A stretch of 64,000 bases of DNA from Candidatus Eiseniibacteriota bacterium (GTDB lineage Bacteria > Eisenbacteria > RBG-16-71-46): assembly GCA_963717505.1 (NCBI GenBank), contig OY970342.1:3072001-3136000 (forward strand), in the 5' to 3' direction. Positions 28,308 through 32,595 of this stretch are shown piece after piece. The stretch's first letter is position 1. Every line of letters starts with the position of its first letter. Both the position numbers and the translations under genes were made by a program. The notes under the pieces are model-generated. The model made no database searches and was not told the DNA's origin. It was given only the letters and a program-made list of their open reading frames with translations.

Positions 28308-29251
28308 GCGACCGGAGCATCCTGGTGGTCGGGTCGGTCGCACTCGACTCGATTCGCACGCCGTTCGGCGCGGTCGAGGAGGCGCTCGGCGGCTCGGCGT
28401 CGTATTTCGCGGTCTCGGCCAGCCACTTCGCGCCGGTGCGGGTCATCGCCGTGGTCGGCGAGGATTTCCCCGACGAGCATCGCACGCTGTTCGCCGAGCG
28501 CGGCATCGACACCTCGGGACTCGAAGTCGCGGCCGGCCGTACGTTTCGCTGGCGGGGGGAGTACGCCGCCGAGCTGGGGCACGCGCACACGCTCGAGACC
28601 CAGCTCAACGTGTTCTCGGAGTTCCACCCGCAGCTCGAGGACCGCCATCGGCAGACGCCGTTCGTGTTCCTCGCGAACATCGACCCGGAGCTCCAGCTCG
28701 AAGTGCTCCGCCAGACGCGCGGCGCGCGTCTGACACTCTCGGACACCATGAACTACTGGATCGCGCGGCGACCCGATCGCGTGCTCGACGTACTCCGCGA
28801 AGTCGACATCGCGCTGTTCAACGAGGAAGAGGCGCGCTCGCTGGCCGGCGAGACCCAGATCGTGCGGGCGGCCGAGCGGCTGCTCGAGCAGGGAGCCCGC
28901 GCGGTGATCATCAAGAAGGGCGAGCACGGCGCGCTCTATCAATCACGTGAAGACCGGTTCATCACGCCGGCGTTTCCGGTCGGCAGCCTGGCGGATCCGA
29001 CCGGCGCCGGGGACTCCTTCGCCGGCGGCGTGCTCGGCTGGCTGGCGCGCACCGGTCGCCGCGACACCGCGACCATCCGGCAGGCCCTGGTCTGTGGTTC
29101 GGTCATGGCTTCGATCGCGATCGAGGGGTTCAGTCCACGCCCACTGGCCGAAGTTTCCCCCAGTGAAATCCGGGAACGGGTTCGGGGCCTCCACCGACTG
29201 GTTCACTTCGAGCTGCCCGAGGATCTGCCCGGATCTGATGCGCGACCTTAG
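28304..29251 (+). CDS. PfkB-family carbohydrate/nucleoside kinase
   Basis: VGSVALD, LGGSASY, NEEEA, DPTGAGDSFAGG. Confidence 0.92.
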   Translation: MSDRSILVVGSVALDSIRTPFGAVEEALGGSASYFAVSASHFAPVRVIAVVGEDFPDEHRTLFAERGIDTSGLEVAAGRTFRWRGEYAAELGHAHTLETQLNVFSEFHPQLEDRHRQTPFVFLANIDPELQLEVLRQTRGARLTLSDTMNYWIARRPDRVLDVLREVDIALFNEEEARSLAGETQIVRAAERLLEQGARAVIIKKGEHGALYQSREDRFITPAFPVGSLADPTGAGDSFAGGVLGWLARTGRRDTATIRQALVCGSVMASIAIEGFSPRPLAEVSPSEIRERVRGLHRLVHFELPEDLPGSDARP

Positions 29252-29269
29252 TGTTCCGGGCTAAAGTCA

Positions 29270-29278
29270 TGGTAGAGT
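29270..29278 (+). promoter_or_regulatory. Putative extended -10 promoter TGGTAGAGT for the 29319 gene
   Basis: TGn + TAGAGT in the intergenic gap; GGAGGAG RBS further downstream. Confidence 0.4.
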
Positions 29279-29318
29279 GTGACCTCGACGCCTCACCCCC
29301 CTGGAGGAGCCGCCTGAG

Positions 29319-30038
29319 ATGAGCAGCCCACGGGCACTCGACACCGCCCAAGTGGAAGAAGCCATTCGTCGACACGCCCGAGGTGTCGAAAGCGTGCGGG
29401 TCCAGGCCGAAGGCGAGGATCTGCGCGAGATCCATGTGATGCCGCGGCCGGGGTGGACTGCCAAGCAGATCGTGCGCGATATCAAGACCATCGTGCTCAA
29501 CAAGTTCGACAAGGCGATCGACCATCGCATCGTTTCGGTCGCCGACGCACCCGACGAGTGGCCCGGCGGTGAGGCCGAGCCGGCACCCAAACGCGGAGCG
29601 CCGCGGTCCGTCGACGCGCGTGTCCGATTCGGCAGCGTCAACGTCTATGTCACCGGCCGTCGAGCGCAGGCGCAGGTCGAAGTGCGCTGGAAGGGCGTGC
29701 CGCGCATGGGCAGCGCCTCCGGCTGGAGCAGCCGCGACGAAGCCCTCGATCTGGTGGTTCAGGCCACGCTTGCCACGATCCAGGAATTCCTGGACGATGG
29801 CATCGCCTTCGGGTTCGAGGGCGTCGAGGTGGTTCGAGTCGGACGCCGGGAGGTCGTGGTGGTCGGACTCGAGCTGTTGGCGTATCGTGCCCACAAGAGT
29901 CTGGTGGGTGCGTGCACGGTGGAAGCCGACGTGCAACAGGCGGCAGTGCTCGCCACCTTGTCGGCACTGAATCGTGTGCTGGGCGGACTGCCGACCCGCG
30001 AACCCACCGAATACGTTTTGAGGCCGACATCGTCCTGA
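29319..30038 (+). CDS. Hypothetical cytoplasmic two-domain protein; C-terminal part resembles the LeuA allosteric domain
   Basis: GGAGGAG RBS; N-domain EIHV...KQIVRDIKT...IDHRIVSV; C-end DVQQAAVLATLSALNRVL; fold call by eye. Confidence 0.75.
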   Translation: MSSPRALDTAQVEEAIRRHARGVESVRVQAEGEDLREIHVMPRPGWTAKQIVRDIKTIVLNKFDKAIDHRIVSVADAPDEWPGGEAEPAPKRGAPRSVDARVRFGSVNVYVTGRRAQAQVEVRWKGVPRMGSASGWSSRDEALDLVVQATLATIQEFLDDGIAFGFEGVEVVRVGRREVVVVGLELLAYRAHKSLVGACTVEADVQQAAVLATLSALNRVLGGLPTREPTEYVLRPTSS

Positions 30039-30090
30039 GGGAGGACAGCGAAGCGAAACTGGAGCGAAGCGTACCCACCTGAGGCAGCTC

Positions 30091-30132
30091 AAAAAAAAAC
30101 ACTCCGTCGGGGCAACCCGATCAAAGGAGGTG
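30091..30132 (-). terminator. Hairpin followed by T9 on the minus strand (possible intrinsic terminator of an antisense transcript)
   Basis: TCGGG-GCAA-CCCGA core (30107-30120) extended by CACTCC/GGAG(G)TG; A9 at 30091-30099. Confidence 0.45.
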
Positions 30133-30138
30133 GGTCGC

Positions 30139-30165
30139 GTGAAGATGGGTAAGGCTGGGTGGTAG
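30139..30165 (+). CDS. Putative 8-aa micropeptide MKMGKAGW
   Basis: AAAGGAGGTG (30123-30132), 6 nt spacer, GTG AAG ATG GGT AAG GCT GGG TGG TAG. Confidence 0.55.
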   Translation: MKMGKAGW

Positions 30166-30256
30166 ATTTCGCCCGCAGTACGTAGAACCTCCTGATTGTT
30201 CGGTGTCGGTCTCACCCAACGTGGCAATCCCGCAACCTGTCCCCCGGGTGACAACC

Positions 30257-31579
30257 ATGGTCGACGTCCCGCCGTTCGCCCACCCTCGGTGGTTCCGGGT
30301 CTACTTCTTCGCCGCACTGCTGACCGCACTCGCCGCCTTCGTCGCGACGCCGTCCGGTGCCCAGCCGCCACTCCTGATTCTCGGGGTCGTGGTCGGCCTG
30401 ATGCTGGCGCTCGAGCTGACGCCGATCGAGCTGCCCGGCGGCGGTTACGCGACCACCAGCGCGGTCGTCGACCTGCCGGCCATCGTGCTGATCGGACCGT
30501 TCTGGACCGCGGTGCTCGACGTGATCGCGATCGGCGTCGCCCAGGGGCTGGTGCGCCGGCGCGCGCCGATCAAGGTGATCCACAATGTCGCGGTCGCGAT
30601 CCTCACCGACCTGGCCGCCGGCTGGGCCTGGCACGCGGCCGGTGGCGCGACTTCGGGACGAGCGTTCGCCGAATGGATGGCGCCGTTGTTCGCGATGGGC
30701 TTCGCCTACTTCGCGGTCAACTCGACGCTGGCCGCGGTCGCGGTCGGCCTGACCCAGGGGCCGAACCCACTGCGGGTGTGGGAGCGGAGTTTCCTCGACG
30801 GCATCATCCACCACGTCTCGTTCCTGGCGCTCGGCATCCTGGCGACCATGACCTACCGGGTTGCGGGGGGGTGGGGACTCCTGTTCTTCGCGATTCCGTT
30901 CATGGTCGCGCGCCATTCGTTCCGGCTCTACGTGGAGATCCGCTCCGACTTGAAGGACTTCGTGCGCGCGCTCTCGGAGGTGCTCGAAGAGGTCGATCCC
31001 TACACCCGGCACCACTCGGCGCGAGTCTCCCAGTACGCCGTGCGCCTGTCCCGCGAACTGGGGCTCCCGGAACGCGAAGTCGAAGAGGTCGAATACGCGG
31101 CCCTGGTCCACGACCTGGGCAAGATCGGGCCGCAGCATCAGCACATCCTCCAGAAACCGGGCAGCCTGTCGCACGAGGAGCAGCGCACGCTGCGCTCGCA
31201 CCCGGCCGCTGGCGCCGAGATCGTGCGCAAGGTGCGGGCCCTCCGGCGGCCGGCCGAGATCATTCGCGCCCACCACGAGCGTCCGGACGGACAGGGCTAC
31301 CCGTTCGGACTGCAATCCGACGACGTTCCGATCGGCGCTCGCATCCTCAACGTTGCCGACGCGTTCGACGCGATGACCTCGGACCGGCCGTATCGCCGCG
31401 CATTGTCGGTGCGGGCGGCACTCGACGAACTCAGACGCGGCGCCGGCACCCAGTTCGACGATCAGGTGGTCGCCGCGCTGGTGCGGATGAACGAGCAGCA
31501 GCGCTTCCCGCTGTTGCCGAGTCCGAGCAGCGAGGACCTGCAGCAGCTGCGCATTCGCCCCCTGCGTCTGCGCGCGTGA
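30257..31579 (+). CDS. Membrane-bound HD-GYP cyclic-dinucleotide phosphodiesterase
   Basis: About 6-7 N-terminal TM segments; DPYTRHHSARV, VHDLGKIG, HHERPDGQGYP, VADAFDAMTSDRPYR, GTQFD; alternative GTG 30203. Confidence 0.92.
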   Translation: MVDVPPFAHPRWFRVYFFAALLTALAAFVATPSGAQPPLLILGVVVGLMLALELTPIELPGGGYATTSAVVDLPAIVLIGPFWTAVLDVIAIGVAQGLVRRRAPIKVIHNVAVAILTDLAAGWAWHAAGGATSGRAFAEWMAPLFAMGFAYFAVNSTLAAVAVGLTQGPNPLRVWERSFLDGIIHHVSFLALGILATMTYRVAGGWGLLFFAIPFMVARHSFRLYVEIRSDLKDFVRALSEVLEEVDPYTRHHSARVSQYAVRLSRELGLPEREVEEVEYAALVHDLGKIGPQHQHILQKPGSLSHEEQRTLRSHPAAGAEIVRKVRALRRPAEIIRAHHERPDGQGYPFGLQSDDVPIGARILNVADAFDAMTSDRPYRRALSVRAALDELRRGAGTQFDDQVVAALVRMNEQQRFPLLPSPSSEDLQQLRIRPLRLRA

Positions 31580-32595
31580 TGCGCTACCGCGACGCGGGGG
31601 TCGACCTCGACCGCGCCGACGCGATCAAGCATCGGCTGATCGAATCGGTGCGCTCGACCTGGGGTGCCAACGTGCGGCCGCTGGTCGGAGGGTTCGCCGG
31701 CGTCATGGAGTGGCCGGCGGGGCCGACGCTGATCGCGGCGACTATGGATGGGGTCGGGACCAAGCTGCACGTCGCGCTGGCCGCGGGTCGGGTCGGGGAT
31801 GCGGCCGCGGATCTCGTCTATCACGGCGCCAACGACCTGCTGGTCCACGGCGCCCGCCCGCTCGCCTTCCTCGACTACATCGCCCAGGCTCGGCTCGATC
31901 CGGAAGTGATCGCGGATGCCGTCGATGGGCTGGCGCGCGCGTGTCGCGAAGTGGGCGCGGTCCTGCTCGGGGGTGAGACGGCCGAGATGCCCGACACCTA
32001 TCTGCCGGGGGTCATCGACGTCGCCGGCTGCATGATCGGCACAACCGAAGACGCGCGACTGCTCGACGGCCGCCGTGTTCGCGACGGCGACGTGCTGCTC
32101 GGGATCGGCGCCGAGGGGTTGCACACCAACGGCTTCTCCTTGGCGCGGCGGGTGCTCGCGGAGTCGCGACTGGGACTCGAAGATCCTCTGCCCGGCGGCT
32201 CCGGATCGATCGCCGCAGCCTTGCTCGCACGGCATCGTCCATACGGCCGCTCGGTCCTGCCGCTGATCGAGCGGGGTCGGATCCGAGCCCTGGCGCACGT
32301 CACCGGGGGCGGCATCGCCGGAAACCTGGTGCGCGTGTTGCCCGAGGGACTCGGCGCCCGGATCGACGGCCGCGCCTGGCCGCGTCCGGCGCTCTTCCGA
32401 TGGTTGATCGAAGCCGGCGCGATCCCCGAGGACGACGCGCGCGCGAGCTTGAACCTCGGCATCGGACTGATCGCGGTCGTCGACCCCGAGGTCGCGACCG
32501 AGGTGAGTGAGGCGCTGGCCGCGGCCGGCGAGACCGTGCACGCGATCGGCGGCATCGCGGCCGGACCGCGACGGGTGGAGTGGATGGAGCCATGA
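31579..32595 (+). CDS. purM: AIR synthetase
   Basis: YRDAGVD, DGVGTK, FLDY, GGETAEMP, GLHTNGFSL, HVTGGG, NLGIG. Confidence 0.96.
   Translation: MRYRDAGVDLDRADAIKHRLIESVRSTWGANVRPLVGGFAGVMEWPAGPTLIAATMDGVGTKLHVALAAGRVGDAAADLVYHGANDLLVHGARPLAFLDYIAQARLDPEVIADAVDGLARACREVGAVLLGGETAEMPDTYLPGVIDVAGCMIGTTEDARLLDGRRVRDGDVLLGIGAEGLHTNGFSLARRVLAESRLGLEDPLPGGSGSIAAALLARHRPYGRSVLPLIERGRIRALAHVTGGGIAGNLVRVLPEGLGARIDGRAWPRPALFRWLIEAGAIPEDDARASLNLGIGLIAVVDPEVATEVSEALAAAGETVHAIGGIAAGPRRVEWMEP

Follow-up and report, generated by a model that had tools for sequence, protein, structure and literature searches.

Can an open reading frame (ORF) of eight codons be a gene, and if it is one, what could its product do? 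This question is raised by a 64,000-nucleotide (nt) stretch of DNA from a Candidatus Eiseniibacteriota bacterium (contig OY970342.1), which we refer to as the window. On its plus strand, to which all coordinates below refer unless stated otherwise, a Shine-Dalgarno (SD) sequence, AAAGGAGGTG (30123 to 30132), precedes the micro-ORF GTG AAG ATG GGT AAG GCT GGG TGG (30139 to 30165, with the stop codon TAG at 30163 to 30165), which encodes MKMGKAGW. An initial annotation of the window had pointed to this frame and its SD, and their coordinates and sequence proved to be exact. We report here that the micro-ORF is a coding micro-gene whose peptide sequence is under selection, that it is a shortened orthologue of a 16-amino-acid (aa) consensus, MDLILELVNFFG(K/R)AGW, and that it is enclosed in a folded stretch of polycistronic RNA of about 200 to 240 nt.

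The micro-ORF is conserved in Candidatus Eisenbacteria

By direct reading of the sequence, six bases (GGTCGC) separate the SD from GTG 30139. The host has a canonical anti-SD, the complement of the 16S tail being present in the genome, so the ten bases of the SD are able to pair with it. Taken from one genome alone, the motif of SD plus ORF does not exceed the chance level. AAGGAGGTG occurs once in the window and matches at least once in 18 of 100 shuffles; genome-wide (4.16 Mb) there are 17 sites where base composition would predict about 25, and a start codon lies 3 to 11 nt downstream of only 4 of them. Six frames in the genome end in G(K/R)xGW-stop, and only the flagged one is both short and preceded by an SD. 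The significance of the micro-ORF therefore comes from its conservation among relatives rather than from single-genome statistics.

We searched the DNA of close relatives, and 21 of the 40 queried matched. Both flanking genes were present at 19 loci (the window and 18 relatives), and every one of these has GGAGG, a start codon 7 to 10 nt farther on, and an ORF ending in G-(K/R)-x-G-W-stop; the spacer from GGAGG to GTG is 8 nt in the window, and it is 8 nt in 12 of the 19 loci and 7 to 10 nt in the others. A protein-anchored scan of named Eisenbacteria genomes gave 78 loci. The automatic criteria for an SD, a start, and an ORF ending in GW-stop were passed by 73 of these, three further loci carry the ORF by eye with the variant tails SW-stop, GWA-stop, and WW-stop, and two are cut by contig ends and too short to judge. 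A strong SD, a start, and a micro-ORF are present in 76 of the 76 Eisenbacteria loci with enough downstream DNA. The micro-ORF lies between the gene for a 239-aa protein (29319 to 30038) and the gene for a membrane HD-GYP phosphodiesterase (30257 to 31579), and 74 of 79 loci have an HD-GYP homologue downstream in the same orientation, the remaining five being cut by contig ends.

The only closer relative obtained came from a metagenome scan. This contig locus, L100, has an upstream protein with 81% amino acid identity to that of the window and an element that is 91% identical overall at the nucleotide level. Its eight codons differ from those of the window by one synonymous change (GGT to GGA), and the short 8-aa form is therefore not an assembly accident.

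Of 206 genomes of the phylum, 152 carry the gene for the 239-aa protein, and these represent 17 of the 18 families. From 13 families at a greater distance we retrieved 20 loci, and 12 of these, in 8 of the 13 families (f2, f5, f11, f12, f13, f15, f16, and f17), have a strong SD, an ORF of 20 to 40 aa, and the twin sequence boxes described below. Family f6 also carries the micro-ORF, and within Candidatus Eisenbacteria as a whole the peptide occurs in at least 11 families. We did not see the ORF in the sampled loci of f4, f7, f8 (where the contig ends), f10, and f14. All 15 f10 genomes have the 239-aa gene and none has the related HD-GYP gene; neither of the two sampled f10 loci has the ORF, and in the f10 loci, as in one f7 locus, purM directly follows the 239-aa gene. 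Conversely, in f18 the related HD-GYP gene is present in 41 of 41 genomes and the 239-aa gene in 0 of 41, and a scan that required the GGAGG core found no such ORF in nine loci. The presence of the ORF thus tracks the adjacency of the 239-aa and HD-GYP genes with two exceptions, L119 and L122, to which we return when weighing function.

The peptide sequence is under selection

The 92 loci of the codon analysis comprise 77 unique gene sequences, which encode 68 unique peptides. Across the 53 unique sixteen-codon genes, the summed entropy was 13.4, 4.7, and 17.4 at codon positions 1, 2, and 3, respectively. The peptides of the 77-gene set are 8 (the window), 12, 13, 16 (53 genes), 17 to 19, 25, 27, 37, or 45 aa long, so that every insertion or deletion is in frame; the whole family spans 8 to 46 aa. 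At five hydrophobic positions the middle base of the codon is always T, Lys and Arg are exchanged through AAG to CGC, and third-base variation is seen in the Gly and Ala codons. The Trp codon, TGG, is kept in all 77 unique genes, which end in TAA (56), TAG (15), or TGA (6). These results show that the micro-ORF is a coding micro-gene whose peptide is the object of selection.

The 16-aa forms follow the pattern M-(D/E)-h-h-h-(D/E)-h-h-(E/N)-h-h-G-(K/R)-A-G-W, in which h is hydrophobic. In the consensus of family f1 the acidic positions are 2, 6, and 9, and the forms of this family carry two or three acidic residues per 16 aa. At the basic tail position, 57 of the 77 unique genes encode K, 18 encode R, and 2 encode Q, and H also occurs in far families. 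The general architecture is a hydrophobic or amphipathic N-terminal helix of about 10 to 18 residues, followed by a tail of small, basic, and Trp residues, mostly G-(K/R)-A-G-W, which lies at the C terminus or a few residues from it. The window's 8-aa copy retains only this tail module. ORFs of the far families have a longer hydrophobic helix and the tails GGRAGW, GRAGWF, GKSGWM, GQSNWW, SRGHW, HRAGW, and YRAGWGPGGP. In some members the tail is repeated: one f17 peptide has GGHAWW in three copies, f3-type peptides have DGK(G/A)GW in two or three copies, and a two-repeat form is found in L018 (from the unpublished genome G026) and independently in the public entry P0123, so that G026 is nowhere the sole support. 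The peptides of L127 (G099), P0121, P0122, P0125, and P0127, with 40 to 46 aa, contain three tail modules (GGHAWW or DGK(G/A)GW) joined by short acidic or polar linkers, and these three-module peptides are the only family members long enough to be called as genes.

The micro-ORF lies in a conserved RNA fold that masks its SD

The outermost helix of the fold, P1, joins a 5' arm, TGAGGCCGACATCG (30019 to 30032), to a 3' arm, CGGTGTCGGTCTCA (30201 to 30214). The 5' arm consists of the last codons of the 239-aa gene, overlapping the codons for L-R-P-T-S. P1 is extended by P1b, whose 5' strand, GGGAGG (30039 to 30044), lies immediately 3' of the upstream stop codon and pairs with CCTCCT (30188 to 30193). 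In relatives, P1 has 10 to 18 bp. It outscored every other long-range stem in 87 of 92 loci, the best-scoring stem of L040, L062, L065, L081, and L096 not being of the P1 type; its 3' box sits 35 to 76 nt behind the micro-ORF.

We aligned 74 unique elements (alignment A4), leaving out L018 and the five loci just named. Standard pairs fill 91.6% of the cells of this alignment versus 39 to 53% when the partners are slid, and none of 500 shuffles reached the observed covariation score. Changes on both sides occur in 9 of the 13 P1 pairs, with 92.7% of P1 cells paired, and in 3 of the 4 P1b pairs; one P1 pair, for example, is AU in 32 elements, GC in 22, GU in 18, and UA in 2. RNAalifold recovers the same helices. 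The long-range P1/P1b helix, including the end of the preceding gene, thus covaries.

After the P1 5' arm come two copies of a box with the consensus AGCGRAGCG, which in the window are box 1, AGCGAAGCG (30047 to 30055), and box 2, AGCGAAGCG (30063 to 30071), both nearly invariant in the 74 aligned elements. RNAalifold pairs the GC dinucleotides of box 1 with those of box 2; since the box columns do not vary, covariation speaks neither for nor against this pairing. Directly behind box 2, the anti-SD strand, ACCCACCT (30073 to 30080), forms the 5' strand of helix P3 and pairs with AGGTGGGT (30128 to 30135), which is the 3' half of the SD plus the following GGT. At the four central pairs of P3 (columns 88 to 90 and 99), C-to-U or A-to-G changes that keep a G-U pair are found in 16 cells versus 5 unpaired cells, and columns 86, 87, and 100 have many unpaired cells. 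GGAGG is invariant, the next T is kept in 73 of 74 elements, and a conserved AUCC upstream is able to pair with the 5' half of the SD. In local minimum free energy (MFE) folds, at least six of the nine nucleotides of the SD region are paired in 72 of 75 unique segments. With this pairing, the conserved anti-SD strand, ACCCACCU, masks the very strong ribosome-binding site in the ground state. The region between the anti-SD strand and the SD is a variable hairpin; in this genome of 68% G+C it contains a run of nine A (30091 to 30099), where L100, the closest relative, has five.

An MFE fold also places the stop codon in the loop of a hairpin (30154 to 30176), with GGGTGG (30157 to 30162) paired to TCGCCC (30169 to 30174) and GC (30154 to 30155) to GC (30175 to 30176). 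A stem score of at least 6 was reached at this place in 29 of 78 unique loci, versus a mean of 7.9 loci (maximum, 14) with shuffled downstream sequence and 15.1 (maximum, 24) with swapped partners. The stop-codon hairpin, which in relatives often has a GGUA loop, is enriched and not universal.

The 45 nt after P1 contain 42% C versus 23% G in 75 loci; in the window this spacer is 30215 to 30256. A U-rich run opens the spacer in several relatives. Being rich in C, poor in G, and sometimes U-rich at its start, the spacer resembles a Rho site or a terminator. RNAalifold on 74 sequences found no conserved structure from the P1 3' arm to +100, and we therefore dropped the idea of a conserved hairpin masking the HD-GYP ribosome site. 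P1 followed by a U tract was also considered as an intrinsic terminator and was rejected, U-rich runs being absent after P1 in the window. A terminator scan of 29200 to 30400 returned only one unrelated site, inside the HD-GYP gene, and no sigma-70-like promoter was found there. Each of two metatranscriptome runs, X5 and X6, gave one 324-nt contig identical to 29966 to 30289 and nothing else in 29300 to 31600. These contigs, which show neither ends nor strand and come from runs that may be one data set, give at most a weak hint of an abundant RNA, and the absence of cover elsewhere carries no weight.

Taken together, these results support in part what the initial annotation had proposed from the window alone. 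That the tiny ORF exists is borne out by its conservation, its codon statistics, and the L100 copy, and none of the related loci that we examined has lost the SD, the start, the frame, the C-terminal G-(K/R)-x-G-W, or the stop. The annotation had named, as a result that would speak against the frame, relatives that conserve the RNA pairings but not the reading frame; the relatives preserve both. It had also assigned the SD to the micro-ORF and not to the HD-GYP gene, and the start of the latter is indeed ATG 30257: relatives' tblastn alignments begin at residues 2 to 13 from this codon in 15 of 18 cases and at residues 38 to 53 in the other three, and the alternative start, GTG 30203, falls inside the P1 3' arm. 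A second start proposed for the micro-ORF, ATG 30145, found no support, as relatives start at the position equivalent to GTG 30139. The annotation did not include the origin of the 8-aa form by shortening, the masking of the SD, or the location of the ORF inside a covarying helix that reaches into the upstream gene.

Neighboring genes

The 239-aa protein has 666 homologues, all of them unnamed or called hypothetical and most of them from Candidatus Eisenbacteria. Its AlphaFold2 (AF2) model (mean predicted local distance difference test score, 84.9) has LeuA as best Foldseek match (E, 1e-5). With VIA-align, modeled residues 100 to 222 match the regulatory domain of citramalate synthase (3f6g_B; Z, 10.3; root mean square deviation [rmsd], 2.7 Å; 108 aligned residues; 21% identity), and residues 3 to 78 match the C-terminal domain of CzcD, which is ferredoxin-like (Z, 8.8). 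The protein is therefore predicted to have a ferredoxin-like domain followed by an allosteric domain with the twofold beta-beta-beta-alpha fold of LeuA and citramalate synthase. Pfam's own LeuA-type model does not match the protein, and a weak row for FGAR-AT_N (the PurL N-terminal domain) has 16.8 bits, below the cutoff of 26. A link of the protein to purine synthesis is possible. We also considered a double-stranded RNA-binding domain; the Foldseek rows for this domain and for ribosomal protein S5 were weak, with rmsd above 10 Å, and we dropped the idea because the regulatory and ferredoxin-like domains ranked top in VIA-align.

The HD-GYP phosphodiesterase has a multipass N-terminal domain, an HD_5 domain (PF13487; E, 2.5e-38), and the motif HHExxDGxGYP. 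In relatives, a conserved CCCC..GAYAGGAC context precedes its start. In the window, purM comes after the HD-GYP gene and is followed by a sigma-54 activator gene; in L115, L116, and L131, from families without the micro-ORF and the HD-GYP gene, the 239-aa gene stands directly before purM. On the minus strand, an open frame of 413 aa (29130 to 30371) spans the 239-aa gene and the entire element. We take it as an artifact of high G+C content because the plus-strand gene has its 666 homologues and a confident fold.

Database, literature, and copy number searches

Rfam returned only two chance rows for 29900 to 30400 of the window at E up to 10 (mir-1994, 17.7 bits with a cutoff of 47; COG3860, 10.9 bits with a cutoff of 42.5), no gathering hit in the whole window, with the c-di-GMP-I and c-di-GMP-II riboswitches included, and for fifteen related loci at E up to 1 a single microRNA row, elsewhere in the sequence. 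Twelve peptides of 20 to 45 aa matched no Pfam or NCBIfam family below E 0.1 and gave no NCBIfam row at E up to 1; we take the single Pfam row (Importin repeat; E, 0.17; 12.6 bits with a cutoff of 27) as chance. The 8- to 19-aa forms are below the 20-aa minimum of the profile tools. A protein atlas search with one 45-aa member gave no usable match, and a profile of 12 members found seven entries of 21 to 46 aa in a collection of 5.8 billion proteins, two labeled hypothetical protein and five nameless. A literature search, which did not cover supplements, gave nothing on the peptide, the RNA, or the gene trio beyond general papers on arrest peptides and small proteins, and we found no paper joining Eisenbacteria with an RNA motif.

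For copy number we used R1, a covariance model of the 5' half of the element. Only the expected locus scores strongly in the window's own genome (G000) and in G019, G149, and G096, which are three of the four other complete or near-complete genomes with the element; the second matches, in G096 and in G087, look like coding sequence. G204 (f18) has no match that reaches E 0.09. R1 is insensitive to far families, since it did not recover the known element of G087 (f15). Outside the window, the host genome has one other intergenic tandem GCGAAGCG box pair (G000:C1:1680732-1680791; L144:1501-1560), which lies between convergent genes without a micro-ORF, scores 24 bits with R1, and is flanked by GTCTCA ... 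TGAGACCGAC, resembling the P1 arms in swapped order. A third tandem box pair lies at about 2,267,097 on the minus strand.

Possible functions of the peptide

We tentatively favor a peptide that acts in trans and works with the neighboring proteins, a plausible reading for which the function is inferred from context. In this mechanism, ribosomes completing the upstream gene would melt P1 and P1b, and opening of the SD-masking helix P3 would allow the micro-ORF to be translated, so its expression would be conditional and coupled to the upstream gene. The peptide would then act through its G(K/R)xGW tail on the LeuA-type regulatory-domain protein, on the membrane HD-GYP phosphodiesterase of cyclic di-GMP (c-di-GMP), or on both, these being the constant co-inherited proteins, and c-di-GMP turnover might be tuned as the outcome. 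We favor this reading because the helix pattern is selected at the amino acid level, because the tail was multiplied independently in two families (f3-type and f17), because residues after the Trp are tolerated (GWF, GWM, GWA, and GWGPGGP), and because the ORF tracks the neighboring gene pair and not the HD-GYP gene alone. L119, where the ORF precedes purM and not an HD-GYP gene, likewise argues for a free peptide over a signal read in the context of the stop codon.

Several observations weigh against a trans-acting peptide. L122 (f4) has adjacent 239-aa and HD-GYP genes without a recognizable ORF. Since the elements of the window and L100 are 91% identical, the one synonymous difference within 27 nt cannot separate selection on the peptide from selection on the RNA in this lineage. 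A peptide of eight residues without the helix fits a membrane-associated partner poorly, and the short form would better suit a cis-acting nascent peptide, which depends on its C-terminal-most residues. The masked SD, the stop-codon hairpin, and the C-rich, G-poor spacer resemble a translation- or Rho-dependent leader, and (K/R)-A-G matches the SecM-type arrest motif R-A-G-P in its first three residues.

The main rival is a cis-acting leader or arrest peptide, which we consider possible, if rather doubtful. Here only the translation of the micro-ORF as such would count: a ribosome that pauses at G(K/R)AG-W-stop, possibly when a small molecule is present, would remodel the leader or block the access of Rho or RNase and so set HD-GYP expression. 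The ORF does lie in the HD-GYP leader in 74 of 79 loci, its SD is masked by a conserved strand, the stop-codon hairpin is enriched, the spacer after P1 has the composition noted above, and the 8-aa form keeps only C-terminal residues. In addition to the match of (K/R)-A-G, arrest sequences reported elsewhere include a K...W motif (KYxIW) and one that ends at a stop codon (PMC10987492). However, two families have internal repeats of the tail, the stop codon does not always adjoin the Trp (GWF-stop, GWM-stop, GWA-stop, and GWGPGGP-stop), the N-terminal helix pattern is under selection at the amino acid level, the next gene in L119 is purM, no conserved structure was found from P1 to the HD-GYP start, and the fourth motif position, P or G in the RQH motif, is W here. 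A branched-chain amino acid attenuator, suggested by the Leu-, Ile-, Val-, and Phe-rich peptides beside a LeuA-type domain, was rejected as the principal reading because the hydrophobic positions interchange freely, the acidic ones are conserved, and the window form lacks such codons.

Returning to a peptide acting in trans, a bolder version is unlikely in its entirety. In it, the G(K/R)xGW micropeptide would be an internal signal for the control of c-di-GMP, with its tail as the ligand of the LeuA-type protein, the HD-GYP enzyme, or both. A new RNA that responds to a ligand or a protein, made of the twin AGCGRAGCG boxes and the SD-masking helix and physically coupled to translation of the sensor gene, would switch the synthesis of the peptide. 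RNA, peptide, and enzyme would form a three-part module specific to Eisenbacteria.

Could the peptide instead be the precursor of a modified or exported product, similar to a ribosomally synthesized and posttranslationally modified peptide (RiPP) or a signal? The helix would then be the leader and G(K/R)xGW the core, multiplied in some lineages. A leader-like helix with a short conserved C-terminal core, present in two or three copies in f3 and f17, has this look, and the Lys...Trp motif resembles that of Lys-Trp cross-linked peptides. We regard this origin as quite unlikely. Four neighbors were scanned with Pfam (the 239-aa protein, HD_5, AIR synthase, and the sigma-54 activator), the other ORFs being inspected by eye only, and no radical-SAM, protease, or transporter gene was among the four; only the 239-aa and HD-GYP genes are constant as neighbors. 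Since K, R, H, and Q all occur at the basic position, a cross-link specific to Lys is not conserved. The window form lacks a leader, and the twelve profiled peptides belong to no known family at the threshold given above.

A purely structural noncoding RNA, with the frame as its by-product, is very improbable, as is the weaker version in which the window copy is a decaying relic and the RNA fold is retained. P1 and P1b do covary, the nucleotide identity of the element between the window and L100 (91%) exceeds the amino acid identity of the flanking protein (81%), and, as a weak point, the sole X5/X6 contig over 29300 to 31600 covers 29966 to 30289. Against this stand the codon-position pattern, the in-frame length changes, and the K/R exchanges across 77 unique genes, which are unexpected for a noncoding stretch, and the SD and start kept at fixed spacing. 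The relic version faces an SD, start, five tail codons, and stop that are intact in both copies of the window lineage. Finally, a hydrophobic peptide of the type I toxin kind, with an mRNA kept inert by SD sequestration and 5'-3' pairing, would share with our element the masked SD, the long-range helix enclosing the ORF, and the largely hydrophobic forms of 20 to 26 aa in far families, but it is scarcely to be expected of an element that is single copy by R1 in G000, G019, G149, and G096 and inherited vertically in strict synteny over 11 families, with f1 forms that carry two or three acidic residues per 16 aa and an 8-aa form too short to span a membrane.

Significance

Genes of 8 to 26 codons escape gene callers, and this family has only seven entries in the collection of 5.8 billion proteins. 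An uncultivated phylum keeps the micro-gene in at least 11 families with a textbook coding signature inside a fold supported by covariation. The natural length series, from 45 down to 8 aa, maps the essential part to five residues. The peptide, the RNA, a putative amino acid-sensing protein, and a c-di-GMP phosphodiesterase make a compact and testable case of coupling, and if the peptide regulates the HD-GYP enzyme, or if the RNA senses a ligand, this would be a new input to second-messenger control.

Comparison with known systems

Structured leaders, riboswitches among them, can contain short ORFs, as in the case of mgtL in the mgtA leader of Salmonella. Leaders of this type resemble the element described here in having a very short ORF in a conserved folded 5' leader, a ribosome that competes with helices, and a C-rich spacer before the regulated gene. 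They differ in that here the peptide is selected over its whole length, the tail is duplicated in some lineages, the closing helix reaches into the preceding gene, and no ligand is known. The type I toxin mRNAs hok and aapA1 combine SD sequestration with long-range 5'-3' pairing and so share a small hydrophobic ORF, SD masking, and closure of the translation unit by a long-range helix, whereas the Eisenbacteria element is single copy and syntenic across the phylum and its f1 peptides are acidic and very short. Streptide-type RiPPs have a Lys-Trp cross-link, an adjacent radical-SAM/SPASM maturase, and invariant Lys and Trp at fixed spacing; here no maturase is among the four scanned neighbors, and of the two residues only the Trp is invariant, K, R, Q, and H all being found at the basic position.

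Arrest peptides of the RQH and SecM type have a C-terminal (R/Q/H)-(A/G/D)-(P/G/S)-(P/G) motif (PMC10987492). The SecM arrest sequence (PMC10192921) and the RAPP-like RQH motifs share with our peptides a conserved C-terminal motif in which (K/R)-A-G equals positions 1 to 3 of R-A-G-P. However, position 4 is W in all 77 unique genes and most copies have K and not R, Q, or H at the first position. The context also differs: the downstream gene is HD-GYP and not secA, secDF, or yidC, and the 8- to 46-aa peptides have no N terminus of signal-peptide length, no export signal, and no long spacer. The whole of a peptide of 8 to 26 aa would still be within the ribosome tunnel at termination.

Clostridioides difficile encodes small membrane-associated proteins behind c-di-GMP class I riboswitches (PMC13724677), and this system is alike in having a small protein gene after a structured regulatory RNA in a c-di-GMP context. 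By comparison, the Eisenbacteria element matches neither a c-di-GMP riboswitch nor any other Rfam family, is single copy, belongs to a different phylum, and encodes far smaller peptides. A precedent for a leader-encoded peptide with its own function is peTrpL, of about 14 aa, which acts in trans (PMC7298713); it has no similarity in sequence or context to the Eisenbacteria peptide. The kind of arrangement, a small ORF in a structured, SD-masking leader beside a signaling enzyme, is already known; what is new is the peptide family, its RNA fold, and the overlap of that fold with the upstream gene.

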